Virus record (IMG/VR): IMGVR_UViG_3300045988_162559
Strand: one strand, 5' to 3'
DNA: 40,956 nucleotides
Source: a virus
Position numbers and translations under genes: made by a program. Below are positions 9,555 through 32,621 of this stretch, in pieces. The notes beneath the pieces are model-generated. The model made no database searches, was not told where the DNA came from, and was given only the letters and a program-made list of their open reading frames with translations. The stretch's first letter is position 1, and each line of letters starts with the position of its first letter.

Positions 9555-12500
9555 TTGATTAAGTATGATTATGAAATAACTGTAAATGGAAATCAAGCAA
9601 AATTAAATAAAGACATATATTTATTCAGAGGAAATAAGAATGTACATTATTATTTTGCTGTAAAAAATGCTTCTTTTAATTTTAAAGGAAGTACAGATTT
9701 AATAGAAAAAACAAACGCAATAAACGCAGCTGTAACGGTTATAAAACCGAATAATGTAGAAGTAGCAAGTGCAATTGCAAAAGTTGAAAATGGGAAAATA
9801 CACCTTAAGGTAACAGAAGATCTAATCGATGAAGAAGTAGAAGTCGGAGATTTTGATTTGGTATTTGATTTGTTCGATGATACTGACGGGGCAGTAACAA
9901 TTCCAAAAGTAATAGGACAATTCCATGTACTAGAAAGACCATGCACAACTCCCATTTCCGAATTGGTAGCAACTAACACAACAAATGAAGTAGACCAGGC
10001 TCTAACGGATTATGCTATTGTTACTTATGCAGAGCCTGTAGCTTCTACAAATGCAGACGGAACTTTTGCTAAAAAAACATGGGTAGCAAAAGAAAAAATT
10101 ACAACAGCAGAGTTAAACAGAATGGAAGAAGGTATAAGCGATGTTAGTTCGCAATGTAAAGATATTGCGAACAATTTTAAATTAGTTGCAGGCGCTAATA
10201 ACGCTATAAAATTAATGTTCGGAACAAAAGAACTATCTAGTATTACCATAAATGGTGGTACAGTAGACCCAACGCCAACACCTAATACTTATACTGTAAC
10301 TAATAATTTGTCCAACGCTAGTACCTCAAATAGTGCTACATCTGTAAAAGAAGGTACATTTTATAGTGCTACCATAACTGCTAGTAGTGGATATAGATTA
10401 AAATCTGTAACAGTAATTATGGGCGGTGTAGATATAACAAGTTCTGTATATTCGAATGGTAGAATATCTATATCTGATGTTACTGGAAATATTAGTATAA
10501 CAGTTACAACTGAATATATTACAAGTGAAATAACAACATATACCATAACTAACAATCTATCACATGCTAGAAATAGTAATACCGCAACAACTATAGAAGA
10601 AAAGTCTTCTTATAATGCTACTATAACTGCTGATAGCAATTATAGAATAAAAAATGTAACAGTAACTATGTACGGCACAGATATTACAAATGATGTCTAT
10701 TCAGGTGGTAAAATAATTATACCTAGAGTTATTGGAAATATTGTCATAACAGTTACTACTGAATACGTTTCAGGTGGAGGAGATGAGTCAAACTTAGACG
10801 GACTATTAAAAGATAGATTATTAGTATGGCATGATGAATTTGATGGTCAAACACTAGATACTAGCAAATGGAGATATGCAACTCATAATAGTGGTGGTAG
10901 TGAACAACAAGCGTACACTGTAGGTAGAACAGAAAATGTAAGAATAGCTTCTAGCAACTTAATACTAGAAGCAAAAAAAGACGGCTATGTTAGTGGTTAT
11001 ACTTGGAGTAGTGGACGTATAGACACTAGTGGTTTAGCAGGATTCCGATATGGAAGGCTAGAAGCTAAGCTAAGATATGACGTAAAAACTGGTTCATTTC
11101 CTGCTTTCTGGACAATTGGTACTTGCGCATATTATCCAACAGGTACAGATGTTCATGGTGTTCATAAGAGTAAAGGAACTCAATGGGCACAAAATGGTGA
11201 AATAGATATGTTTGAAGGTAGAGGAACTAATAGTGAAATCAGTCAAGGTGGCTGGTATAATCAAGATGACGGAAAAGGCAATATGAACATGGTATTTGGT
11301 ACTAAAAATATTGATGCTTCTCAATATCATGTATATGCTGTAGAATGGACAGAAACAACAATTATCGCATATATAGACGGTGTTGAAACTGGAAGAAAAA
11401 ATATATCTGATATAACATCATGGCATAGACCTCAATATATCATATTAAATATGGCAGTTGGTTCTACAGGTGGATATCCTGCTGATGACTGTACTTCAAT
11501 GAAAATGGAAGTTGATTGGGTTAGAGTTTATGCACCAGTTGGAGTTACAGAAAAAACAGAGGTTCAATCTATTACATTAAGTCAAAATAATTTATCATTT
11601 AATATGGGTGATGACCCAATAGATGTATATTATACTGTAAATCCTTCTACAGCTTGGGATAATAATGTTAACTATGAATCTAACAACCCTAATGTGGCGA
11701 CTGCTTATGGTTCAAGAATAACTCCTGTGGGTACAGGTAATTGTAAAATAACAGCTAGAGCAACTAATGGAGTTACAGCGACTATTAATGTAACTGTGGC
11801 ACAAAATACAAGTATAAATGCTGAAAGTATTGCATTAAATAAAAATACATTATCAATCTATAATGGAACTAACAGTACACTTATTGCAACTGCTACACCT
11901 GCTAACCATACTGATTCGATTCTTTGGAAATCAAGTAATACTAATGTAGCGACAGTAAGTAATGGCGTTGTTACAGGTAAAACTAAAGGTGTTTGTACTA
12001 TAACAGCTTATTCTAGTGCAAATTCGAGTGTAAAAGCTGATTGTTCTGTAACAGTCAAAGAGGCTGTGCAGTTAACAGGACACCCAACATCAGGATTAAC
12101 TCTTCAATTAGATAGAAATGGTATGTCTAGTACGTCATGGACAAATGCAATAGATAATACTCCACTACAATGGAAAGTTGCTAATAATAACTCATCAGAT
12201 ATAGCTTCATATATGGTATTTGACGGAAATAGTTTCTATTGGGCAGGAGCAAACTATAAAGACCATTTAACATTAAGTGGATTTAGCCGTTATTATGACT
12301 TTGGAGAATCACAAACTGTAATACTTGCAGGTGATTTTACGAACGTAAAAAATCCTATCTTATCAAATAAGCAAAAATTATCACAAAATACTAATCTAGC
12401 TTGTATGAACAACAACGGAATAACATATTCTGATGCAAGTGGTGCTAAATTAGGCTCAATAAATTTAACTACATCAGAACAAAATTATAATATAAATGGT

Positions 12501-13576: not shown

Positions 13577-14452
13577 ATGAGTAAAAAATATTTAGTAGCT
13601 ATAGATGCAGGACATGGTATGCATACAGAAGGTAAACAATCAGTACCAATGTCAAAAAATTTGTATATAGATAATGAATTAGTAAGAGCAAAAGGAAAGA
13701 TCATCAAAGAAAATGAATGGAACAGAGGTGTAAGCGAATACTTATCAGCTGCACTAAAAAGATGTGGTATAGATACAATGTTTACAGCAGATATGACAGG
13801 TAAAACAGATATTGCCTTGTCTACTAGAGCAAGTAAAGCTAATAAAGCTAAAGCAGATATATTAATTTCAAATCACTATAATGCAATAGGAAGCTGTGCT
13901 AAATGGCAAACTCGAGTTAAAGGGTTATTAGTATTAAGAACTAAAAATTGTTCTGAAAAATCTATAAAATTAGGAAAATTAGCAGTTAAGCATCTTAAAA
14001 AAGACATAGACTATGAATATAGTTATGGTTTAATGCGCGATGTAGATATGAGTGGATTTACATTAGCTATACTTAGACAAACAACAATGCCAGCAATATT
14101 AATCGAGTATGGTTTTATGGATTATTGGAATGAAGCAAAACTTATGCTTGATAAAAAACATCAAGAAAAATGTGCTGAAGCAGTTTGTAAGTCAGTATGT
14201 GAATATTTCGGAGTAACTTATATAGCAGAAAAGCAAGAAGCTAATAAAACTAAGTATGTTAGAATATTACAAGATATAAACATACATAGCAAACCAGATT
14301 TTGATGCTGCTAATGTAATAGGTAAAGTTACTGCTGGTGGAGCTTATACTGTAGTAGAAACTATAAAAAGAACTGGAACAGATATGTATAAACTAAAATC
14401 AGGAGTATATATAACAGCATCACCAAAATATGTAGAAGTGTTTTATAAATAG
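13577..14452 (+). CDS. Endolysin, N-acetylmuramoyl-L-alanine amidase (Amidase_3) with a C-terminal SH3-like binding domain
   Basis: AIDAGHG...ISNHYNA...LIEYGFMD motifs. The C-terminus YVRILQDINIHSKPDF...YKLKSGVYITASPKYV is SH3-like. Confidence 0.85.
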   Translation: MSKKYLVAIDAGHGMHTEGKQSVPMSKNLYIDNELVRAKGKIIKENEWNRGVSEYLSAALKRCGIDTMFTADMTGKTDIALSTRASKANKAKADILISNHYNAIGSCAKWQTRVKGLLVLRTKNCSEKSIKLGKLAVKHLKKDIDYEYSYGLMRDVDMSGFTLAILRQTTMPAILIEYGFMDYWNEAKLMLDKKHQEKCAEAVCKSVCEYFGVTYIAEKQEANKTKYVRILQDINIHSKPDFDAANVIGKVTAGGAYTVVETIKRTGTDMYKLKSGVYITASPKYVEVFYK

Positions 14453-14463
14453 GATTATCGGAC

Positions 14464-14513
14464 GCGACCGATAGCGACCGATAGCGACCGATAGCGACCG
14501 ATAGCGACCGATA
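14464..14513. repeat. Five perfect tandem copies of the 10-bp unit GCGACCGATA (iteron-like)
   Basis: Read directly. An inverted half-copy TATCGG at 14456..14461 precedes it. Each unit is 60% GC in a strongly AT-rich genome. Confidence 0.95.
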
Positions 14514-14566
14514 ATGTATAAATATTTCAAATACAGTCGATACTTCTAATAAAGGAGGTGTCGGCC

Positions 14567-14650
14567 ATGAAAAAAATAGCATTGGAAATAACAGGGCGCA
14601 TTGCATATCTAGGAATTGGAGTAGCAAGTGCTATATTAATAATGATGTAA
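14567..14650 (+). CDS. 27-aa hydrophobic peptide (MKKIALEITGRIAYLGIGVASAILIMM), possibly a type I toxin-like or small membrane peptide
   Basis: Strong RBS AAAGGAGGTG lies 6 nt before the ATG. There is one TM-like segment. A hairpin follows at 14656..14678 (ggccaaggg-attat-cccttagcc). Confidence 0.5.
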   Translation: MKKIALEITGRIAYLGIGVASAILIMM

Positions 14651-14956
14651 TGGTAGGCCAAGGGATTATCCCTTAGCCTATTATAATTTACTAGCTTTGT
14701 ACTGATAGTTAACCTTTTTATAAAAAAATGATAAAAAGCTTGTCCACGTATATTTTTGAATTTATATGATATTAAAATTAAACTGGATAAATGAAAAATT
14801 AAAATATAAAACAATGCTATACCCAAAATACGAAATATATAATAAATAAATATAAGTAAAATATAAAAAAAATATAAAAAATCTAAAAAAAGTGTATAAA
14901 AATTTTTGAACTGGAAATAATATAAGTATAATAAATAAGAATTAAATAAAAATATA

Positions 14957-15012
14957 TCCCTGTTACTTTAGTTATTTTTAATTTCAAATTGAAACGGGAA
15001 AAAATAACTAAA
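14957..15012. repeat. Nested inverted repeat: 13-bp perfect arms (14967..14979 / 15000..15012) enclosing the palindrome tttcaaattgaaa (14982..14994)
   Basis: tttagttattttt and aaaaataactaaa are exact reverse complements. tccctgtt/aacggga gives an alternative pairing. Confidence 0.9.
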
Positions 15013-15030
15013 AATAAAAGATGGGGGAGT

Positions 15031-15080
15031 CTGCGCGGCGGGGCCAATAAATAAAAAGAAATTGGCGCTGCTTTTTATTT
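15031..15080 (+). terminator. Terminator-like hairpin in a GC-rich island (gccaat-N12-attggc, then gctgc and a T run)
   Basis: gggggagtctgcgcggcggggccaat...attggcgctgcttttt. No annotated gene lies directly upstream, so it may end an sRNA. Confidence 0.4.
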
Positions 15081-15265
15081 ATTTAAACCACTCGATTGTA
15101 CAAGCCTAACTCTAGCGATATCAACAAAAAATAGTGTGAAGCGCAAAAAACACACTTCACATAATCAATCACATAGTTAATCAAATAAATTTCACAAAGT
15201 AGTCAAATATGTGAACCGTATTGCATATATATATTAAATATAAAAAGAAAAAGGGGGAAAATAAT

Positions 15266-15841
15266 ATGCAAGAACGAGATTTAAAAATTTTAAGTTTTTT
15301 AACTATGTGTAGAATATGTACTAGAAAACAAGTACAGGAATTATTATTTCCAGATGTACATGAAAATATACCACTTAGAAGATTAAAAAAATTAACTGAT
15401 GAAGGTTATATAAATAGAAAGATGTTTAATGTAGAAGGTACTAAGAATATGTACGTATACTATCTTGATAAACAACCTAAAAAGAAATTAATAACACATG
15501 ATCTTTATATAACTGATTTTTTAGTGAAGCTTATAAAGAATGAATATGAAATTTTAGATTTTAAGAAGAGTCCACAAATAGGCAATATAATTCCAGATGC
15601 ATACTTGAAGATAAGAAAAAATAAAAGAATAAAACGAATTTTACTTGAAGTCCAAATAAGTCCTAATGACTGCTTATCAAAATATAAAGAAATTAAAGAG
15701 ATAATAATAGAAAATACAGATTGGCCTGTTATGCCTATATTATATGTTATTAATAATCAAGGCTTAAATAAAAGAATGAAAGATATAAAAGTTATATATG
15801 ATAGCATAAAAATAGAAAAGGTAGGTGATATAATTGATTAA
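15266..15841 (+). CDS. Replication-relaxation family-like protein (N-terminal wHTH plus a PD-(D/E)xK-like core)
   Basis: The ATG at 15266 follows GGGGGA; the track ORF begins upstream at 15221. RDLKILSFLTMCRICTRKQVQELLF...LRRLKKLTDEGYI is wHTH-like. THDLYITDF...IIPDAYLKI...ILLEVQIS is nuclease-fold-like. Confidence 0.6.
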   Translation: MQERDLKILSFLTMCRICTRKQVQELLFPDVHENIPLRRLKKLTDEGYINRKMFNVEGTKNMYVYYLDKQPKKKLITHDLYITDFLVKLIKNEYEILDFKKSPQIGNIIPDAYLKIRKNKRIKRILLEVQISPNDCLSKYKEIKEIIIENTDWPVMPILYVINNQGLNKRMKDIKVIYDSIKIEKVGDIID

Positions 15842-16910
15842 TCTATTTATAGATAGTATATTTAATGCTGCTAAATCAATAGAGAATATAGTATTAAAAA
15901 AGAAGTATAACTGGGATAAATTATTCTTTGAGATTAACCTATGTAATCGTAGTAAAGAATATCCTATATTACATCATCAATATAAAGATAATGATTTTTA
16001 TTTTACAATTCCTATAGGGCTTTCAATAAATGATTTTATAAAATATAAAATAGAAATAGCTACTTTTCTAAAGGTAAATCCAGATAAACTAAAGATAGAG
16101 TATAAAAACAAGTTGATATTAATTCATATAAATAACAATGATGAAAAATACAATTATAATGATTTTTGCTTTGACGATAAAAAAGGAGTGCCAATCGGAA
16201 TAGATTTAGACACACATAATATTGTTTACTGGTACTATAGTTCAGCAAATGAATGTCACCTATTAATTGCAGGGGCGACGGGTTCAGGCAAATCAGTTTG
16301 TTTAGATGTAATTGTCAATAATCTAATAAAGAGAAAAAATATAGATTTGTATATTCAAGATACAAAATTAATAGATCTGTATCAATATAAAAATAAATGT
16401 AAGTATTATGGGGAAGGTAAAAATGGTATAGAGGACATTATGGAAGAATTAACAGAGGAAATGGAAAAAAGATATAAAGTTTTAAGAAGAAATAAAGATA
16501 AGAAATATAAAGCTATATTCTTAATAATAGAAGAGTTAGCAAGTTTTAATCCAAAGATAGATAAGGAATTTTATAGATTACTAGGAGAACTATTAGCAAA
16601 AGGTAGAGCAGCGAGTATTTATGTAATACTGACAACACAAACACCTTATGCTGAAATATTACCAGGAATTCTGAAATCTAATATTAACACAAAAATTGGA
16701 TTAAAGGTAAATACAAAGGAAGCAAGCAAAGTAATAGCAGGAGATTATGAAGCTTTAATGAATTTGAGAGGAAAAGGACATGGAAAGATTTTTACAGGAA
16801 ATAGTGTAAGAGAGATACAATGCTTTGAAATAAAAAAAGAAGCATCTACTGCTGCAACAGTAAATGCTCCAGATAGTAATAAGGCCAACAGAACCGAAAA
16901 AACTATCTAA
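15834..16910 (+). CDS. FtsK/SpoIIIE-family DNA translocase-like ATPase, soluble (no TM segment)
   Basis: Walker A LLIAGATGSGKS (16272..16295), Walker B AIFLIIEE, GRAASIYVILTTQTP and LRGKGHG. The TTG start overlaps the upstream stop by 8 nt, so the two genes are translationally coupled. Confidence 0.8.
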   Translation: MINLFIDSIFNAAKSIENIVLKKKYNWDKLFFEINLCNRSKEYPILHHQYKDNDFYFTIPIGLSINDFIKYKIEIATFLKVNPDKLKIEYKNKLILIHINNNDEKYNYNDFCFDDKKGVPIGIDLDTHNIVYWYYSSANECHLLIAGATGSGKSVCLDVIVNNLIKRKNIDLYIQDTKLIDLYQYKNKCKYYGEGKNGIEDIMEELTEEMEKRYKVLRRNKDKKYKAIFLIIEELASFNPKIDKEFYRLLGELLAKGRAASIYVILTTQTPYAEILPGILKSNINTKIGLKVNTKEASKVIAGDYEALMNLRGKGHGKIFTGNSVREIQCFEIKKEASTAATVNAPDSNKANRTEKTI

Positions 16911-16929
16911 TAATATTATAATAGTATAC

Positions 16930-16967
16930 AGAAAGAAGTACAAATAATTTTTACTGTACTTCTTTCT
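16930..16967 (+). terminator. Terminator after the FtsK-like gene
   Basis: 13-bp perfect stem agaaagaagtaca / tgtacttctttct with a 12-nt loop, then atttta. Confidence 0.65.
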
Positions 16968-16974
16968 ATTTTAG

Positions 16975-17026
16975 TGCTTGTACTAAATAACATTAACCAG
17001 GTGGTGATAGTAACTTAGTACAAGCA
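16975..17026. other. 52-bp dyad (12-bp perfect arms tgcttgtactaa / ttagtacaagca around a 28-bp core): candidate attP for the serine integrase
   Basis: It lies 15 bp from the integrase stop codon. The size and imperfect inner symmetry (accaggt centre) match what serine-integrase attP sites look like. Confidence 0.35.
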
Positions 17027-17040
17027 AATGTGTAAAAAAA

Positions 17041-18405
17041 TTATAAAAATTTAATGTCAATATTATAATTTCCATCAATAGTTATAACATCAATAAAAGA
17101 TGTCCAAAATCTTTTACGTTCGGTAGCATCTAAATTATAATATATATCTTCTATATTATCTAATATAGATAGTAATTTATCAGCATCTTTAGGAGCTACT
17201 TTTGCAACTTCTTTATTTTTTATTTCTTCTAAAGCCTGGTTAAATATAGCATAATCTTTTTTATAGTCTTCTAATGAAATCAAATCATTTAGATATAATT
17301 CTCTTAATTTATCTATTTTCTTTTGAATTTTAGCTTTATTTTGAGAAATATCAGTAGAACTTGATTTTTTTGAAGAAACATCAAAAGAATACAGATAATT
17401 TTTATATTCTTCAACTATACAATTCAAAAGTACCTTTTCAAGTTTTTTTTCATTTATAGATTTTTTCTGATCACAATCTTTATAGATGCTATATCTATTA
17501 CATCTATATGTTTTTATTACATTTTTACCACTTCTATTACTATAATGTCCGACAATTTTATAACCACAATGTGCACATTTTAAGAGGCCACTGAAAATAT
17601 AAGTTTCTTTTCTGTTATTAGATACATATTGCTTATTATTTTTCAATATCCTTTGGACATTGCTAAATTGCTCTAGAGAAATAATTGGCTCGCAGTAATT
17701 TTCTTTATAATAATTTTTAGATTTATAAGTTCCTGTATAAATTATATTTTTTAATAATTTATTAAAACTCCTAAAACTTGTAGGTTGATTATAAACATTA
17801 TTTATCTGTATAAAAGCAGCACGAGCTGACATTAATTCTTCAACCAAGTCGAAACTTTTTTTTACAACCCAAGCGGTATTTTCATCGATTGCTAACTTTT
17901 TATCTACAATTTTATAACCCTTTGGAACACTACCGGATATAACTTCATTTCTTTCAATCTTGTATCTAAATACGTCTTTTATACGTTCAGAGGTTTTATC
18001 CAGTTCTCTTTCTGCTAAAGATAATTTTAAGTTAAATGTAAATTTACCATCTGCAGTTGAAGTGTCTATGTCATCTTCGAAAATTGCTTTCATACAGACA
18101 TTATTACTCTTAAATTGTTGGTCCAATAAATTAGCATCTATTATATTTCTACTTAATCTATCTAATTTTGTAAAAAGAACTATATCAAATTTATCAAGAT
18201 CTGATAATAGATTTTGTAATCCTTGTCTTTTTGTGTTTTTAGCGGTTAAACCTTCATCAATATAAAATTTATATATTTTATAATTATTTCTTTTACAATA
18301 TTGCTTCAAATCTTCTTTTTGTGCTTCTATAGATAATCCATGAAGCTTTTGTTCTTCATGAGATACTCTACAATAGCAAGCAGCTTTTTTAACTATTGTT
18401 TCCAT
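17041..18405 (-). CDS. Large serine recombinase (phage integrase)
   Basis: Resolvase-type N-terminus AACYCRVSHEEQKLHGLSIEAQ, recombinase domain, Cys cluster CAHCGYK...RCNRY and a C-terminal coiled coil. The start at Met-24 of the track ORF (METIVKK) is preceded by AAGGGG. Confidence 0.9.
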   Translation of the reverse strand: METIVKKAACYCRVSHEEQKLHGLSIEAQKEDLKQYCKRNNYKIYKFYIDEGLTAKNTKRQGLQNLLSDLDKFDIVLFTKLDRLSRNIIDANLLDQQFKSNNVCMKAIFEDDIDTSTADGKFTFNLKLSLAERELDKTSERIKDVFRYKIERNEVISGSVPKGYKIVDKKLAIDENTAWVVKKSFDLVEELMSARAAFIQINNVYNQPTSFRSFNKLLKNIIYTGTYKSKNYYKENYCEPIISLEQFSNVQRILKNNKQYVSNNRKETYIFSGLLKCAHCGYKIVGHYSNRSGKNVIKTYRCNRYSIYKDCDQKKSINEKKLEKVLLNCIVEEYKNYLYSFDVSSKKSSSTDISQNKAKIQKKIDKLRELYLNDLISLEDYKKDYAIFNQALEEIKNKEVAKVAPKDADKLLSILDNIEDIYYNLDATERKRFWTSFIDVITIDGNYNIDIKFL

Positions 18406-18578
18406 TATGATTACCCCTTTGCTAAATGTTATAGTATATAAATATTTTAAACAATAAATTTTGGATTTACTCATAAAATATAATTTTTTTAAAAATTTTT
18501 TTTAATAAGTTACTTTTTAGTTATAAATAAATAAACAGATTTCTATCATATAAAAACGCCAATTTTGGGGAGACTAAA

Positions 18579-19157: not shown

Positions 19158-19536
19158 ATTCTGATTCTTTCTTTATTTCTAGAAATCTATCAATTATTTT
19201 TTCTAGTGTTTCTAATTCATCTTCACTTAAAGAAGCAAAAGTTTTAAATAAATTTTTATGAAAATTATTTTCTCCAGTCATTATATAATCAATTTTTGCC
19301 AAATAATCTTCATCATCTTTATTATTAGAAAACATTTCACCTTCGCCAGTTGTAAGCCACATATAATCAACTTTGAACTCACTACAAGTCAACTTTATAC
19401 TTGCCTCTTTTAAGTTATATTTTCCATTTTCAATATCGCTTACAGTATTTGCCTTTAAACCTATTTTTTCGCCAAAGTCTTTTTGAGTCATTTTTAAAGT
19501 TTTTCTTAAATATTTTAATCTTTCACCTTTATTCAT
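19156..19536 (-). CDS. CI-like phage repressor (XRE HTH, 126 aa)
   Basis: LKYLRKTLKMTQKDFGEKIGLKANTVSDIENGKYN is an HTH_3 pattern. It is divergent from the early operon. Confidence 0.75.
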   Translation of the reverse strand: MNKGERLKYLRKTLKMTQKDFGEKIGLKANTVSDIENGKYNLKEASIKLTCSEFKVDYMWLTTGEGEMFSNNKDDEDYLAKIDYIMTGENNFHKNLFKTFASLSEDELETLEKIIDRFLEIKKESE

Positions 19537-19554
19537 GATATCACCTCTATATTA

Positions 19555-19583
19555 ATAATATCGGAAAGCGAAAAAAAAATCAA
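19555..19583 (-). promoter_or_regulatory. Repressor-gene promoter (minus strand TTGATT-17-TATTAT)
   Basis: -35 is the complement of 19578..19583 and -10 the complement of 19555..19560. The AATATCGGAAA box at 19557..19567 overlaps it. Confidence 0.55.
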
Positions 19584-19591
19584 TAAATTTA

Positions 19592-19644
19592 TTGACAAAT
19601 ATCGGAAAATGAAATAATATATAAGTATAAAATCGAAATGCGAT
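19592..19644 (+). promoter_or_regulatory. Early lytic promoter (TTGACA-17-TAATAT) with operator boxes
   Basis: -35 at 19592..19597 and -10 at 19615..19620. A second AATATCGGAAA box (19598..19608) lies in the spacer, and an atcgaaatgcgat element lies at 19632..19644. Confidence 0.65.
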
Positions 19645-20906: not shown

Positions 20907-21040
20907 CTAGAAAAATTAAAGTAAAATCAAGTCGAGAGTTGCACCAATCACGGTGTTTACTGACTTGATAATACTATTAACTTTAGAACATATAATAAAT
21001 AATTTTAATTTATATTATTTATGATTTGGGGGAAGTAAAA

Positions 21041-21799
21041 ATGTCATATATACAAAAGACAATAATATCAGGGAAAGTAGTAGAAGTTATAAAACAGTAT
21101 GACAGAAAACACTTCCCTAAAGGTAAACATACTAAGTTTAAGAAAAGTGATATTAGAGGACCAAAAGAAAATAAAACTACTGAACAACAAGAAAAAGTGA
21201 ATTATAGACAAAAAGAATTAAAACTTACTAGACTATTAAATTGTAACTTTCAAGGTGGAGATTATCATATAGTTTTTTCTTATAAAGAAGATCTTAGACC
21301 AAATAGCATAGAAGAGTTAAAAGATGATAAAAAGAAGTTGCTAAGAAAAGTAAGAACTGAATATAAAAAACAAGGAAAAGAACTTAAATATATAGCAGTA
21401 GCGGAAGTAGGAAAAAGAAAAGCATTACATTTCCATTTTGTTGTTAATCAAATTGATACGAGTATATTCCAAAAATGTTGGACAAAAGGATTTATAAAAA
21501 TAAGTCTATTAGATAATTCAGGACAATATAAAGATTTAGCGGCTTATTTATTAAAATATACTAAAACAAATAAAGAAGAAGCTAAACAACTTAATGGTGC
21601 TGCATGGAACAGTAGTAAAAATTTAGACAAGCCAGTTGTAAAAGTAAAAGTAATAACAAGAAGTCAATTTTTTAAAGAAGAAGTAACACAATCAAAAGAA
21701 TATAAAGAGTATTACTTAGAAAAAGATAGTGTTTATACAGGCTTTAATGAGTTTACTGGTTATAAATTTTTTAAATACACACTAATTAGATTGAATTGA
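21041..21799 (+). CDS. HUH-type rolling-circle replication initiator-like protein
   Basis: KRKALHFHFVVN (HUH motif) and LAAYLLKYTKT (Tyr motif) in the expected order. The start at ATG 21041 follows GGGGGAAG. Confidence 0.5.
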   Translation: MSYIQKTIISGKVVEVIKQYDRKHFPKGKHTKFKKSDIRGPKENKTTEQQEKVNYRQKELKLTRLLNCNFQGGDYHIVFSYKEDLRPNSIEELKDDKKKLLRKVRTEYKKQGKELKYIAVAEVGKRKALHFHFVVNQIDTSIFQKCWTKGFIKISLLDNSGQYKDLAAYLLKYTKTNKEEAKQLNGAAWNSSKNLDKPVVKVKVITRSQFFKEEVTQSKEYKEYYLEKDSVYTGFNEFTGYKFFKYTLIRLN

Positions 21800-26024: not shown

Positions 26025-26573
26025 ATGAATATAGCAGAGAGAAATGAATTAATAGAAGATAATTTAAATCTAGTCTATTTTATGATCGAAAAACACTTTG
26101 CAACTTATGTAGATAGAGATGAGTTGATAGGTATAGGATATGAAGGAATTATAAAAGCTGCAGATAAGTTTGATAAAAGTAAAAATATAAAGTTTTGTAC
26201 TTTTGCTTGTAAATGTATTCACAATGAGATTACTAAATATTTAAATACATTAAATTACCATTGTAGAAAAGCAAATATGGTAGCTTGTTCAATTGATAAT
26301 AAAATAGAAGATTGCATAGGAGAAGATTTAACTTTTAAAGAAGTTCTTAATATTAATGAAGACTATTCTATAGTTGTTGCAGAAGAAATATTAAATAGAG
26401 CTAATTCTTTAGTTGCAAATGGTAGATTTATTTTAGAAAAAAGAATTGCTGGATATACATTTAGAGAGATAGGCCAAATGTTGAATATAACAGGCCAAGC
26501 TGTGATGAAAAGGTTATCTATAATAAGACAGTATTTAAATTTAAAAGAGGCGGACAATGAAAACATTAACTAA
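26025..26573 (+). CDS. Sigma-70 family RNA polymerase sigma factor (regions 2 and 4), copy 1
   Basis: NLNLVYFMIEKHF...GYEGIIKAADKFDKSKNIKFCTFACKCIHNEI fits region 2. GYTFREIGQMLNITGQAVMKRL fits the region 4 HTH. Confidence 0.75.
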   Translation: MNIAERNELIEDNLNLVYFMIEKHFATYVDRDELIGIGYEGIIKAADKFDKSKNIKFCTFACKCIHNEITKYLNTLNYHCRKANMVACSIDNKIEDCIGEDLTFKEVLNINEDYSIVVAEEILNRANSLVANGRFILEKRIAGYTFREIGQMLNITGQAVMKRLSIIRQYLNLKEADNENIN

Positions 26574-26643
26574 ATTTGAAAAAGAAGAAATAAAAACAAT
26601 CAAGTATGAGCAACTAAGTTTTATATAGGAGGATATAAAGAAA

Positions 26644-27183
26644 TTGAATACAGAAGAAAAAAACAAATTAGCAGAAGAAAATTTAGGATTAGTTTATTTA
26701 GTTGTAAACAAAGAATTTACTTATGAAAAAACTACAGAAAGCGATAGAGAAAACTACATAGAAGAAGGTATGATTGGATTAGCAAAAGCTATTAATACAT
26801 TTAATCCAAGTAAAGGTGCTAAATTTAGTACATATGCTTATACATGCATAAAATTTGAAATAAATAACTATGTAAGAAAGAAAAACAATCATAAAAGAAA
26901 AATAAACTATGTTTGTAAAAATTCAATAGATGAATATATAAAAACTCACAAAGATATTTTAATGGATACGAAAGATGCTTATTCTTCTTTAGTAAATAGA
27001 GATGAAATATTAAATATACTTGGAAAGATGAAGATAAAAAATATAAAGTATATCACTTTAAAACGTGCAGAAGGTTATACGTATGAAAAAATAGGTAATA
27101 AAATTGGAGTTAGTAAAGAAACAATACGAGCAAGATTGAATAAAGCTAAAAAAGAATTAATCGAATTAGGAATAACTGCATAA
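26644..27183 (+). CDS. Sigma-70 family RNA polymerase sigma factor, copy 2 (paralogue of 26025..26573)
   Basis: NLGLVYLVVNKEF...GMIGLAKAINTFNPSKGAKFSTYAYTCIKFEI and GYTYEKIGNKIGVSKETIRARL. TTG start. Confidence 0.75.
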   Translation: MNTEEKNKLAEENLGLVYLVVNKEFTYEKTTESDRENYIEEGMIGLAKAINTFNPSKGAKFSTYAYTCIKFEINNYVRKKNNHKRKINYVCKNSIDEYIKTHKDILMDTKDAYSSLVNRDEILNILGKMKIKNIKYITLKRAEGYTYEKIGNKIGVSKETIRARLNKAKKELIELGITA

Positions 27184-29884: not shown

Positions 29885-30337
29885 ATGAATAAGAAATTGG
29901 AAAATAAGATTAATAAAGAACTTATAATACCTAAAATAGAGTTTCAAAAACAAAATAAGGAGATAACTAAGTGGATAGAAAAGTTAGTTCAAGAAAACAA
30001 GATTATATTATTCTATCACAGTGCCAAATGGAAAAAAATGAGGAATGTGGTACTTCATGCTTATCATAACGAATGTGTATTATGTAAGTTAGATGGGAAA
30101 ATAACAACACATGATAATAGATTAAAGAATGGAGATTACAGAGGATTGCAAATACATCATATGAAGGAAATAGAATTAAATCCAGAGCATGGGCTTGAAC
30201 CAATCATTACAGATTTAATTACAGGGAAGAAGATAGTTAATCTAATTCCCTTATGTAATTATCATCATAATATGATACACGGAAAAGAAAATAATATATT
30301 GAAAGTAAAAGAACAGTTAAATAAAGAACGATGGTAA
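29885..30337 (+). CDS. HNH endonuclease (packaging-associated type)
   Basis: LQIHHMKEI...LIPLCNYHHNMIHG. It lies upstream of a P27-family terS. Confidence 0.8.
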   Translation: MNKKLENKINKELIIPKIEFQKQNKEITKWIEKLVQENKIILFYHSAKWKKMRNVVLHAYHNECVLCKLDGKITTHDNRLKNGDYRGLQIHHMKEIELNPEHGLEPIITDLITGKKIVNLIPLCNYHHNMIHGKENNILKVKEQLNKERW

Positions 30338-30371
30338 AATAAATTAGTTTATGAGACATGGGGGAATTAAC

Positions 30372-31295
30372 ATGAATAAATTAGAAAGGGACTTTATAGA
30401 AAAGTTTGATTCTATTCATGGAGATAAATGGGAATATGTAAGTGGATACATAAATAATAAGAGTAATATATTGATTAAGTGTAAAGACTGTAGAGAAATA
30501 AGAAGCGTTTCTGCGGATAGAAGCAAAAGAAAAGATGCTAATATACTTTGTAAAAAATGCAATGAAAATAATTTTAAAAAGTCATTTGATAACAAATACA
30601 TAAATGTATATGAATATATAAGAAGAGAGCACAAAGTAAATGATTTTAATAAGGATACACATATTGTTAAATGTTTAAAATGTGGAAAAATTAATAAATG
30701 GAAAGGTTCTACATTATATAATGAAAAGTTTAGTTGTAATCATTTAACAGAAAAACAAATACAACAAAGAAGATTAGAGAATGAAATAAATAACACTATA
30801 CTTGAATTAAGAAAAGAAATAAAAGATATAGAGAATAGGAATGATTTATTTAAAAAAGAATTAAATAAAATAAAAGAATGTGTATATTGTGGAATCGTAT
30901 TCTATGCTAAAGATTATAATTGGTATTGCAGTGATATATGTAAAGCTATTATGAAGAAAGAAAAACAAAAGATACATAAAAGACTAAGAGAAGCTAAAGC
31001 TAAAGAAAATGGGAAGATAGAGTGGAACATATCATTAGAAAAGTTAACACAAAGGGATAAAGGAGTATGTAAGATATGCGGAAGAGAAGTAGATATCAAT
31101 GACTATTATTATAGTGATGAAGGGTATTTTATAGCTGGTAATAATTATCCAAGTATTGATCATATAATTCCATTAGCTAAAGGTGGAACTCATACATGGA
31201 ATAATGTTCAGTTAGCTCACAGATATTGTAATAGCATTAAGAGCGACAATATAATAGAACAAGAAGAAAAACAAAAGCTGGTTTTAGAATTTTAA
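30372..31295 (+). CDS. HNH endonuclease with an N-terminal multi-Cys (zinc-ribbon) region
   Basis: The C-terminus SIDHIIPLAKGGTHTWNNVQLAHRYCNSIKSD is an HNH motif. Several CxxC pairs lie N-terminally. The start at MNKLERD follows GGGGGA. Confidence 0.8.
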   Translation: MNKLERDFIEKFDSIHGDKWEYVSGYINNKSNILIKCKDCREIRSVSADRSKRKDANILCKKCNENNFKKSFDNKYINVYEYIRREHKVNDFNKDTHIVKCLKCGKINKWKGSTLYNEKFSCNHLTEKQIQQRRLENEINNTILELRKEIKDIENRNDLFKKELNKIKECVYCGIVFYAKDYNWYCSDICKAIMKKEKQKIHKRLREAKAKENGKIEWNISLEKLTQRDKGVCKICGREVDINDYYYSDEGYFIAGNNYPSIDHIIPLAKGGTHTWNNVQLAHRYCNSIKSDNIIEQEEKQKLVLEF

Positions 31296-31486: not shown

Positions 31487-31834
31487 ATGGCAAGAGAAAG
31501 AAAAGCGGTAAAAGAATTAAGAGAAAGTGAAAAATATGAAAAAATTAGAGAAGATTTACTGGACCAATTAGAAAGAAATTTTACCTATGGACAACAATTT
31601 AAAGATTTAGTAGAAGATTATATGTCCCTCTGGATTGTAAAAAATCTGCTAATAGATGACATTAAAGCAAGAGGGGTTAGCATTAAATGGAATAATGGCG
31701 GTGGGCAAAGTGGATACAAGAAAAATGATAGCATAGCTGAACTTAATAAAACTAATGCGCAAATGTTAAAACTTTTAAATGAATTAGGAATTAAAGCTAC
31801 TGTAGCAGATGGTGGTGATGATGATGAATTATAA
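31487..31834 (+). CDS. terS: Terminase small subunit (P27 family)
   Basis: 115 aa. ...YMSLWIVKNLLIDDIKARGVSIKW...NDSIAELNKTNAQMLKLLNELG. It lies directly upstream of terL. Confidence 0.8.
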   Translation: MARERKAVKELRESEKYEKIREDLLDQLERNFTYGQQFKDLVEDYMSLWIVKNLLIDDIKARGVSIKWNNGGGQSGYKKNDSIAELNKTNAQMLKLLNELGIKATVADGGDDDEL

Positions 31835-32621
31835 AGTTTATTGTCATATATCCCCAAGTAATAAAGTTTATATCGGGATAACTCAGCAAGGAGTCAATAA
31901 AAGATGGCAAAATGGAAAAGGATACAAAGAAAACCAATATTTTTATAGAGCTATCCAAAAATATGGATGGGATAATTTTCAACATGAAATACTATTTGAA
32001 AATTTAACGAAACAAGAAGCAGAAAAAAAAGAAATAGAATTGATAAAAAAATATGATAGCACGAATATAAATAAAGGATACAACATATTAGAGGGTGGTA
32101 ATGCAACTTCCGGCTTAAAAGGTGAATTAAATGGAATGTACGGAGTTCATAGATACGGAAAAGAAAATCCTAACTATGGTAAAAAACATAGTGCTGAAAG
32201 TAGGGAAAAAATTAGTAAAAATCATGCTAATATGAAAGGTGGGAATAATCCTAATGCAAAAGCAATAAGAAATAAATCAACAGGTGAAATTTTCCCATCT
32301 GCAAGAGAGGCAAGTGAAAAATACGGAGTTACTCCTAGTGCAATATCATCTTCTATCAGAAGAGTAAATAAATGTGTTGGATGTTATTGGGAATATATAG
32401 ACGATCCTCAAAAAATTGAAAACATAGAAAAAATGGTAAAGGAAAGAATAACAGGCAGAAAAGGGTATAAAGTTAGAAATATTGAAACCGGAGAGGTTTT
32501 TAGAAGTCTAGCACAAGCAGGAAAAACAATCAATAAAGGGCCTGAATCAATAAGCAGAGCTATAAAAAGAAAAGGTAAAAGTGGCGGATATCATTGGGAA
32601 TATGTATTAGAAAAAGGTTAA
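31824..32621 (+). CDS. Free-standing GIY-YIG homing endonuclease with NUMOD3-like repeats, between terS and terL
   Basis: YKVYCHISPSNKVYIGIT...RW..GKGY...YFYRAIQKYGWDNF...GYNILEGG. Repeats NGMYGVHRYGKENPNYGKKHS. The likely start MNYKVY at 31824 overlaps the terS stop; the track ORF begins at 31809. Confidence 0.8.
   Translation: MNYKVYCHISPSNKVYIGITQQGVNKRWQNGKGYKENQYFYRAIQKYGWDNFQHEILFENLTKQEAEKKEIELIKKYDSTNINKGYNILEGGNATSGLKGELNGMYGVHRYGKENPNYGKKHSAESREKISKNHANMKGGNNPNAKAIRNKSTGEIFPSAREASEKYGVTPSAISSSIRRVNKCVGCYWEYIDDPQKIENIEKMVKERITGRKGYKVRNIETGEVFRSLAQAGKTINKGPESISRAIKRKGKSGGYHWEYVLEKG

Follow-up and report, generated by a model that had tools for sequence, protein, structure and literature searches.

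The virus record IMGVR_UViG_3300045988_162559 of IMG/VR (40,956 nt, 28.9% GC; this whole 41-kb stretch is referred to here as the window), a prophage of a gut bacterium, carries, at 15266..16910, a two-gene cassette in which a putative relaxase-family protein is coupled to a DNA motor. By analogy with conjugative plasmids we tentatively suggest, with somewhat less than even confidence, that this cassette is a miniature relaxosome, in which a relaxosome-like nickase and a DNA motor act on the phage's own DNA. A relaxosome-like module is ranked first because the MOBC relaxase, coupling ATPase and origin of transfer (oriT) of plasmid pAD1 together comprise the closest characterized system for both proteins and for the cis-acting site. 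Both protein families are already known, and the pair has been noticed in phage genomes before. What is new here is that the phage pair is explicitly linked to MOBC relaxosomes, together with the combination of PF13814 with an FtsK/TcpA motor that lacks a transmembrane domain (TMD), a clade-specific 12-bp repeat array, fusion proteins, and corrected boundaries of the cassette.

Both genes lie on the plus strand. Gene 1 runs from an ATG at 15266 to a TAA at 15839-15841 (191 aa), with a ribosome-binding site, AAAGGGGGAA, 8 nt 5' of its start; gene 2 begins with a TTG at 15834 and ends at 16910 (358 aa), and the two share 8 nt (15834..15841). A preliminary description of this DNA had proposed the same two open reading frames (ORFs) and the same overlap, and its coordinates match ours; 27 of 29 related loci keep an 8-nt overlap whose start codon, TTG or ATG, has the identical position. 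The peptide motifs that it quoted (GATGSGKS, FLIIEE, TTQTP, RGKGHG, RRLKKLTDEGYI, IIPDAYLKI and LLEVQIS) are all found in the translations. Across relatives, whose amino-acid identities range from 98% down to 58%, the genes diverge in step, and pairwise dN/dS values of 0.08-0.24, alike for genes 1 and 2, indicate that they are real and constrained rather than chance ORFs in AT-rich DNA; both are under purifying selection. In two IMG/VR contigs gene 1 is 91% identical to that of the window and gene 2 only 81% (L028) or 71% (L029), a mismatch that suggests recombination between the two genes, i.e. mosaicism of the cassette. At the DNA level, a search with 14453..17040 against 50,697 phage records returned zero matches.

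Profile comparison identifies the product of gene 1 (15266..15841) as a short member of Replic_Relax (PF13814), the MOBC relaxase family, with 34.5 bits against a cut-off of 25.3 (E = 2.9e-8) and an alignment over residues 9-70, which form a winged helix-turn-helix (wHTH). The preliminary description had named this family for gene 1 and FtsK_SpoIIIE for gene 2, and the profile searches support both assignments. The name of PF13814 joins the 'relaxation' of CloDF13 to the 'replication' of pUA140 (PMC3424549), and Coluzzi et al. entered the family as 'Rel_PF13814/MobC' (PMC5357655, Table 1). Among the PHROGs, gene 1 has a full-length match to phrog_9996, a group of unknown function (E = 2.6e-16), and a weak one to phrog_2190 ('replication initiation protein', E = 5e-5). 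No match was found in NCBIfam or PADLOC-DB 2.0, nor did any Rep family match in Pfam or NCBIfam. The AlphaFold model (pLDDT 89.5) features a MarR/HxlR-like N-terminal wHTH followed by an alpha/beta restriction-endonuclease-like domain, in line with the wHTH and PD-(D/E)xK core that had been proposed from the letters. Foldseek searches with this model return MarR/HxlR-type regulators and, weakly, Bax1, FokI, EndoMS, BamHI and other PD-(D/E)xK enzymes; the model also strongly matches uncharacterized proteins of Bacillus phages G and JL (TM ~0.7). Gene 1 therefore resembles the relaxases of its family in build, and by analogy with them probably encodes a sequence-specific DNA-binding protein and nickase.

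The analogy is closest with TraX of pAD1, which a 2025 review of type IV secretion systems (T4SS) treats as the prototype, with a winged helix and a PD-(D/E)xK catalytic domain, no covalent intermediate, and binding to five direct repeats 70-120 bp from nic (PMC12857230). On pTEF1, a pAD1-like plasmid of E. faecalis V583 that MOB-suite types as MOBC, TraX is named 'replication-relaxation family protein' by PGAP, and a VirD4-type ATPase gene lies just 5' of traX. A 12-sequence profile of gene 1 relatives aligns to this TraX in hhalign with 87% probability (E = 3.8e-6) over residues 8-93, an overlap that comprises the wHTH and the first nuclease helix (HDLxITD vs HHLQIND). A 139-sequence subfamily hidden Markov model (HMM) gives a weak full-length alignment (19.5 bits, bias 12.5; in hhalign this profile reaches only 21.7% probability), in which D111, E128, Q130 and K139+Y140 of gene 1 pair with D152, E170, E172 and R180+Y181 of TraX. 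Together with H78, these gene 1 residues make up its conserved set; D111, E128 and K139/Y140 are invariant or nearly so among relatives, and H78, D111 and E128 are invariant in nine very divergent family members. Mutagenesis by Francia et al. in 2013 reportedly showed D152, E170, E172, K176, R180 and Y181 of TraX to be functionally important, in a numbering that fits the pTEF1 sequence.

Gene 2 (15834..16910) is predicted to encode a soluble FtsK/TcpA-type alpha/beta ATPase motor. It matches FtsK_SpoIIIE (PF01580) with 51.1 bits (cut-off 24) and phrog_1358 ('FtsK/SpoIIIE-like protein', category moron) with E = 1.6e-46; nothing in NCBIfam exceeds any curated cut-off (FtsK 56.6 bits vs 1566, plasmid_TraB 24.9 vs 800), and PADLOC yields domain-level matches only (mad8, SspH, HerA). 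Walker A spans G147-S154, and E233-E234 provide the Walker B/acidic residues. By sequence the RecA-like core is closest to FtsK, and the sole full-length sequence alignment is to the cytoplasmic domain of TcpA, the coupling protein of pCW3 (E = 5e-8). The structural model (pLDDT 84.6), which has a single low-confidence helix at its N-terminus and a disordered tail at 336-358, likewise finds TcpA as its top Foldseek match (6o1w, E = 2e-18, 349 columns, full length), with the FtsK motor essentially tied (TMq 0.60-0.66) and EccC/EssC and HerA well below. Only the alpha/beta motor is present: gene 2 has no gamma domain, membrane domain or long linker, and a search for transmembrane (TM) segments found none, the maximum 19-residue Kyte-Doolittle mean being 1.48. 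The preliminary description, which had recognized neither a membrane anchor nor a gamma domain, was correct in this respect.

In the Bacillus and Clostridium versions of the cassette and in the 69% clade, small hydrophobic ORFs of 61-80 aa stand ahead of the FtsK-like gene (L002 5660-5899, L001 4750-4953, L022 6221-6412, L021 7153-7386) or, in L009 (7526-7711), of the pair; several of them have two predicted TM helices, and one, in pMU3262, is annotated as SpoIIIAC/AD-like. These ORFs could encode a detached membrane anchor for the motor. The core cassette of the window has no equivalent.

Several candidate cis-acting elements lie upstream of gene 1. An intrinsic-terminator-like hairpin on the plus strand (15037..15084; GGCGG.GCCAAU...AUUGGC.GCUGC, then a U-rich run; RNA fold -15.9 kcal/mol) would insulate the cassette from upstream transcription, and other clades have comparable hairpins ahead of their conserved core. 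It is followed on the same strand by a putative sigma-A promoter, recognized by its hexamers (-35 TTGTAC at 15096-15101, a 17-nt spacer, -10 TATCAA at 15119-15124); promoter-like hexamers occur at the same aligned position in all cassette clades (e.g. TTGGAC/AATACT, TTGTAC/ATAACT, CAGACA/TATACT), and the minus strand of 15096..15124 matches the promoter consensus too. Between this promoter and the ribosome-binding site lie an inverted repeat, TGTGAAG / CTTCACA with an A-rich spacer (15135..15161; DNA fold z = -3.2), and five phased direct repeats TCA(C/A)A(T/A)A on the plus strand (15157..15214), which start at 15157, 15169, 15181, 15192 and 15203, i.e. at a spacing of 12, 12, 11 and 11 nt, and are joined by an inverted copy at 15208-15214. 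The right arm of the inverted repeat is itself the first direct-repeat copy. Four of the 19 exact TCACAWA matches in the window crowd into this 58-bp stretch.

This layout of inverted repeat and array is kept in six other cassette clades, and the motif differs by protein clade. The inverted repeat occupies the same aligned position with another sequence, e.g. TATAGATCAT/ATGATTTATA in locus L049 and CGAAATCG/CGATTTG in L045. The array motif is ATCACA(T/C) in the 69% clade, three copies of (A/G)CGATTT at 24-bp spacing plus an inverted copy in a Terrisporobacter-type clade, and three copies of GATTTA(T/C) at 24 bp plus an inverted copy in another; the lytic podovirus DLc1 has five 12-bp AGTTAC-type repeats and the C. 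perfringens phage-plasmid p4 four 12-bp repeats. The array stands at the 5' end of the operon even in DLc1 and the C. perfringens element, whose gene order is reversed (small ORF, FtsK, Replic_Relax). Such co-variation of motif and protein clade is the pattern expected of a site bound specifically by the wHTH protein that the cassette itself encodes, and marks 15157..15214 as a candidate binding array for gene 1, which could serve as an operator, an oriT-like site or an ori-like site. In pTEF1, oriT2 comprises a nested inverted repeat (19498..19639) beside 5.5 copies of a 12-bp repeat.

Downstream, the pair ends in a terminator hairpin of its own on the plus strand (16930..16967; 13-bp stem, RNA fold -16.3 kcal/mol, z = -4.2), which had been proposed before and is 100% conserved in phage and integrated copies. 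With terminators on both sides and a putative promoter of its own, the pair is insulated like a classical moron. The preliminary description had considered it a self-contained unit with a long structured leader. The flanking terminators agree with the former; the supposed leader of ~800 bp, from 14453 onward, is broken by the hairpin at 15037..15084 and then by the conserved promoter-like site at 15096..15124. An Rfam scan of the window gave no match at gathering score, with just a chance miRNA match in this 'leader', and a tRNA search of the window found none.

Two upstream loci that had been put forward as recognition sites do not hold, while the candidate site described above (15135..15214) had been missed. 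The first is a perfect 5 x 10-bp tandem, GCGACCGATA, at 14464..14513, starting 12 nt past the endolysin stop codon; it is absent 5' of gene 1 in all 18 related loci checked. In phages that have the pair upstream of the holin it still follows the endolysin stop, and thus belongs to the endolysin flank. This array accompanies the 3' end of the endolysin gene in several Intestinibacter phages, in 3-6 copies (L012 ~11525-11590, L009, L013, L003), and the DNA around it has 46% GC, against 29% for the genome. The second is the nested repeat/hairpin at 14957..15012, which only close relatives keep and which diverged cassettes lack. A stretch of 177 bp with 12% GC (14780..14956) is likewise common to close relatives only, and cassettes at 58-69% protein identity share window sequence only from 15072 on.

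The coupling of the two genes, marked by their overlap, has counterparts in natural fusions. P0215 (634 aa) joins FtsK to Replic_Relax in that order, with the wHTH where the FtsK gamma domain would be; it matches PF13814 at profile positions 91-180 with 24.1 bits, just under the 25.3-bit cut-off. P0420, P0423 and P0427 are natural PDDEXK_1-FtsK_alpha-FtsK fusions, and P0166 fuses a GIY-YIG domain to a Replic_Relax-type wHTH. A three-gene version of the cassette, in L017, comprises Replic_Relax, a 99-aa Cys-rich ORF and FtsK. GIY-YIG endonuclease genes also adjoin the cassette in four unrelated contexts (L017 7274-7714, L020, L045-L047, L054 6660-7091); these neighbours and the fusion may represent homing endonucleases that target the cassette, or a swap of nuclease domains.

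The cassette lies between the genes for an endolysin (13577..14452) and a serine integrase (17041..18474, minus strand). In two contigs that hold the integrated prophage (L004 and L008), similarity to the window stops at ...AACCAGG (~16998-17004), beyond which lies host sequence, and alignment with these contigs places the attP of the serine integrase at 16977..17026, with arms GCTTGTACTAA / TTAGTACAAGC of an inverted repeat that encloses this breakpoint, and the crossover near 16998-17004. attP thus separates the pair, terminator included, from the integrase gene, and in the lysogen no further unit stands between the pair and attR, which fits the cargo slot between endolysin and integrase suggested for it previously. 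The integration target is a host gene for a patatin-like GGGxxG protein, of which a 199-aa remnant ORF remains past attR (L004/L008 ~11736 onward). All eight IMG/VR contigs with this integrase carry the pair, and the same arrangement is found in a lineage whose integrase is only 28% identical. The pair, the serine integrase and attP make up the full parts list of an integrative mobilizable element (IME). The phage also encodes a rolling-circle Rep (21026..21799), a terminase and a single-stranded DNA-binding protein (SSB); that terminase, Rep-like protein and integrase were already on hand had been rightly pointed out.

Relatives of gene 1 are numerous. The subfamily comprises 1,026 clusters (50% identity) at E <= 1e-3 and 370 at E <= 1e-10, nearly all of 170-225 aa, and its carriers are integrative siphoviruses, phage-plasmids, phi29-like podoviruses and large Bacillus phages. 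The identified hosts are all endospore-forming Firmicutes (Intestinibacter, Terrisporobacter, Clostridium, Thermoanaerobacterium, Bacillus, Priestia, Cytobacillus and Pullulanibacillus). When a divergent alignment was used for a second word-index protein search, it mostly recovered close relatives already found, and a scan of GTDB genomes with the gene 1 alignment gave 226 pattern matches, of which 0 were confirmed. A survey of gene neighbourhoods, as had been proposed, finds the pair to be recurrent in phage and phage-plasmid contexts, cargo positions included: between lysis genes and attP-integrase in this lineage, between tail and lysis genes in ~65-kb ParM-carrying contigs, in the integrase/repressor interval beside AbiLi-like and HicAB genes (L017-L020), between replication genes and terminase, directly 3' of ParM/ParR in phage-plasmids, and at the genome end in the phi29-like phages DLc1 and Bfsp1. 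In L017 (10274-12254) the genes for an AbiLi-like ATPase (PADLOC E = 2e-45) and for a partner of 206 aa stand right after the three-gene cassette, in the integrase-repressor hot spot. Two B. subtilis phages, 96% identical to each other, differ by a 2.5-kb indel that holds the pair (PMC9476937). These genes come up in the published genome descriptions of Pony, RBClin15, Novomoskovsk/Bolokhovo, Izhevsk, Kirov and gamma-like phages, with speculation on injection, segregation, plasmid replication or sporulation; no experiments on the pair are reported in them or elsewhere in the searched literature. The earlier view that the pair has no characterized phage function thus stands within that literature, whereas its impression of an unknown pair does not, given a recurrent Firmicute phage and phage-plasmid cassette noted in several genome papers.

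Comparison with characterized systems places the cassette nearest to TraX, TraW and oriT2 of pAD1/pTEF1. Shared with these are PF13814 and the build of a MarR-like wHTH plus PD-(D/E)xK domain, an FtsK-HerA-superfamily ATPase gene adjoining the relaxase gene, and a cis-acting site in which some five direct repeats of 12-bp period adjoin an inverted repeat. The systems differ in that TraX is longer (261 aa vs 191 aa), the nested repeat of oriT2 spans ~140 bp where the phage cassette has 7-bp arms, TraW is VirD4-type where the phage motor is a TMD-less FtsK/TcpA type, and the carrier is a conjugative plasmid rather than a phage with no T4SS genes near the cassette. MOBC relaxases are typically accompanied by a coupling ATPase of their own, as with the PF13814 relaxase and VirD4 of Streptococcus suis IMEs and with TraW-TraX of pTEF1. 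According to the literature, the mobilizable element CloDF13 also encodes a MOBC relaxase, MobC, with its own coupling-type ATPase, MobB. The latter is membrane-bound.

TcpA, known from C. perfringens pCW3 and from integrative conjugative elements (ICEs) and IMEs of Firmicutes, is the best full-length structural match to gene 2; its N-terminal transmembrane region is absent from the phage protein. In IMEs, tcpA adjoins a non-canonical relaxase gene in a compact module near the integrase gene (PMC5357655). These IMEs differ from the cassette in that TcpA goes with Rep-like (MobT, Rep_2) relaxases and PF13814 relaxases go with VirD4, and the combination of PF13814 with FtsK/TcpA is not described in the IME surveys (PMC5357655; S. 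suis IMEs). With FtsK/SpoIIIE and SftA, gene 2 shares the alpha/beta motor fold and the Walker motifs; unlike FtsK/SpoIIIE it lacks the gamma (KOPS/XerD) and membrane domains, and it is a phage-encoded protein of 358 aa. SftA is a soluble member of the family that is able to work. For the phage motor, sequence recognition is presumably supplied in trans by the wHTH of gene 1. TraB of Streptomyces and the actinomycete ICEs (AICEs, pSAM2-type) offer a parallel in which an FtsK-like motor recognizes short direct repeats (clt) of its own element, beside an integrase and an initiator protein (PMC5365140); TraB, however, has its own C-terminal wHTH, is membrane-associated and transfers double-stranded DNA between mycelia. 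HerA-NurA repair and HerA-Sir2/DUF4297 defence machines also set a hexameric FtsK-HerA-superfamily ATPase next to a nuclease, and gene 2 has weak structural and PADLOC matches to HerA. Gene 2 is nonetheless clearly nearer to FtsK/TcpA, and gene 1 belongs to another nuclease family and carries a predicted sequence-specific wHTH with a putative cognate repeat array.

On these grounds we envisage that gene 1 would use its winged helix to bind the array of five phased TCA(C/A)A(T/A)A repeats that precedes it, and that this binding would also autoregulate the operon. By analogy with TraX of pAD1, the PD-(D/E)xK domain would then nick the DNA at the neighbouring inverted repeat or close to it. The product of gene 2, made in translational coupling with gene 1, would form a hexameric ATPase of the FtsK/TcpA type, be recruited to the gene 1-DNA complex, and pump the phage's own DNA. 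We infer each of these steps, from DNA binding and nicking to motor loading, and likewise where the DNA goes. The likeliest role would be to treat the circular phage genome, excised or episomal, like a plasmid. For such handling we favour mobilization via a conjugative pore supplied by a co-resident element, like that of IMEs, with relaxase-primed replication or segregation as the closest alternative. Transfer or mobilization was also among three readings in the preliminary description, the others being episomal maintenance and superinfection exclusion or defence; it receives the strongest homology support of the three, with PF13814 being MOBC and TcpA the best structural match to gene 2, although the recognition loci proposed along with it were wrong.

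Several observations weigh against a relaxosome-like role. The PF13814 match of gene 1 spans the wHTH alone, and Q130 (D or H in distant members) stands in place of TraX E172, with no counterpart of K176, which leaves the catalytic activity of gene 1 unproven. At the level of HMMER, the subfamily profile finds nothing among the ORFs of the CloDF13 record, whose mob region reads as broken ORFs. All 11 plasmids with a gene 1 homolog are typed as non-mobilizable by MOB-suite, and the subfamily is found only in phage or phage-plasmid contexts. Homologs are carried even by strictly lytic phi29-like phages, whose protein-capped linear DNA makes conjugative mobilization implausible for those carriers. 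Gene 2 has no transmembrane segment, and the coupling proteins TcpA and VirD4 depend on membrane anchors for docking at a T4SS. Many relatives directly adjoin ParM/ParR partition genes, which points to episomal maintenance rather than transfer. Autoregulated operators and iteron origins just as typically have repeats and an inverted repeat before a wHTH gene.

One rival reading is a plasmid-type replication or maintenance module, in which gene 1 would be an iteron-binding initiator that opens or nicks an origin of phased repeats and AT-rich DNA, and the motor would unwind, resolve or segregate the episome. We regard this as possible, albeit rather unlikely. Authors of several papers on Bacillus phages favour this kind of reading, and an iteron replicon is what the direct repeats, the inverted repeat that follows the promoter and the 12%-GC stretch at 14780..14956 resemble; the AT-rich stretch, however, is not kept in diverged cassettes. 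The label 'replication initiation protein' on phrog_2190, and likewise on gp10 of DLc1, speaks for it; the fold of gene 1, which is that of a PD-(D/E)xK nuclease rather than a WH1-WH2 or RepA_N initiator, speaks against it. Distant relatives are found beside ParM/ParR and Xer-like recombinases (pCKL555A, pMU3262, L042, L051, L054, L009-L013), yet phage-plasmids of the L009 type have another Rep candidate beside ParM, phi29-like carriers use protein-primed replication, and the phage studied here integrates and has its own rolling-circle Rep and SSB. FtsK-type motors, moreover, are not known to act as replicative helicases.

A role in defence or superinfection exclusion, whereby a prophage-expressed, sequence-guided translocase-nuclease attacks or expels incoming DNA, seems unlikely. 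Defence systems commonly combine an ATPase with a nuclease, the domain of gene 2 is similar to the ATPase domains of SspH and mad8, and FtsK-PDDEXK fusions occur; PADLOC-DB 2.0 nevertheless gives no system-level match (none for gene 1, domain only for gene 2), and the same is true of the L017 and DLc1 versions. The moron-like build, with a putative promoter of its own and flanking terminators at the prophage end, the variable cargo positions, the AbiLi-like (E = 2e-45) and HicAB neighbours in L017-L020 and the presence or absence of the pair between near-identical B. subtilis phages (PMC9476937) would all suit defence cargo, whereas among relatives with the same integrase the pair is fixed (8/8) rather than patchy. 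The nearest characterized relatives are conjugation proteins, and a clade-specific repeat array that adjoins the genes suggests that the protein acts on its own locus. Less likely still, and in our view improbable, is a SpoIIIE-like delivery in which the motor, targeted by gene 1, helps to carry phage genomes into the forespore. The identified hosts are indeed all endospore formers, a restriction which may only mirror the phage lineages sampled. Co-occurrence with phage sigma factors, seen here (26025..27183) and in gamma-like Bacillus phages, where the combination of FtsK and sigma factor has been remarked on with regard to sporulation (PMC4113786), fits this role, as do the small two-TM ORFs that precede the motor in DLc1, Bfsp1, pMU3262 (SpoIIIAC/AD-like) and L009. 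The role would also suit lytic phi29-like carriers; an integrated prophage, in contrast, needs no separate delivery, and the cassette of the window has no membrane partner.

The relaxosome-like reading matters in that these genes have been labelled 'moron' or 'replication initiation protein' purely by analogy, while the MOBC link yields a concrete mechanism with specific residues and a 90-bp DNA site. By a bolder extension, which we consider doubtful, a minimal relaxosome would give phages of spore-forming Firmicutes a virion-free second route, through co-resident conjugative pores or the sporulation septum; if true, one DNA molecule would move both as a virus and as a mobilizable element. If the module mobilizes or segregates phage DNA, the line between transduction and conjugation would be blurred, which would help to explain the spread of related prophages among gut Firmicutes. 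If it is instead a defence or replication module, it would represent a new architecture for that function. Either way, a function would be gained for a gene pair that is common in Firmicute phages.

Elsewhere in the window, two adjacent sigma-factor genes (Sigma70_r2/r4, phrog_351) lie at 26025-26573 and 26644-27183. Two HNH endonuclease genes stand upstream of terS, and a homing-endonuclease gene (phrog_314) lies between the small and large terminase genes (29885-31295, 31809-32621). Between the endolysin gene and the cassette, a small ORF at 14567-14650 with a strong AGGAGG ribosome-binding site encodes a 27-aa peptide, MKKIALEITGRIAYLGIGVASAILIMM, with a hydrophobic C-terminus, which could be a small membrane peptide or the product of a type I toxin-like gene; its 5' part is ~75% conserved after the endolysin gene in L007 and L014. 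In close relatives (L003 8384-9391, L007, L014) the 12%-GC stretch is followed by a 13+6-bp nested hairpin, as at 14780-15012 of the window. Immediately to the left of this AT-rich/hairpin region, these three loci carry a gene for a 335-aa tyrosine recombinase on the minus strand, which suggests that the window may carry the remnant control or target region of such a recombinase.

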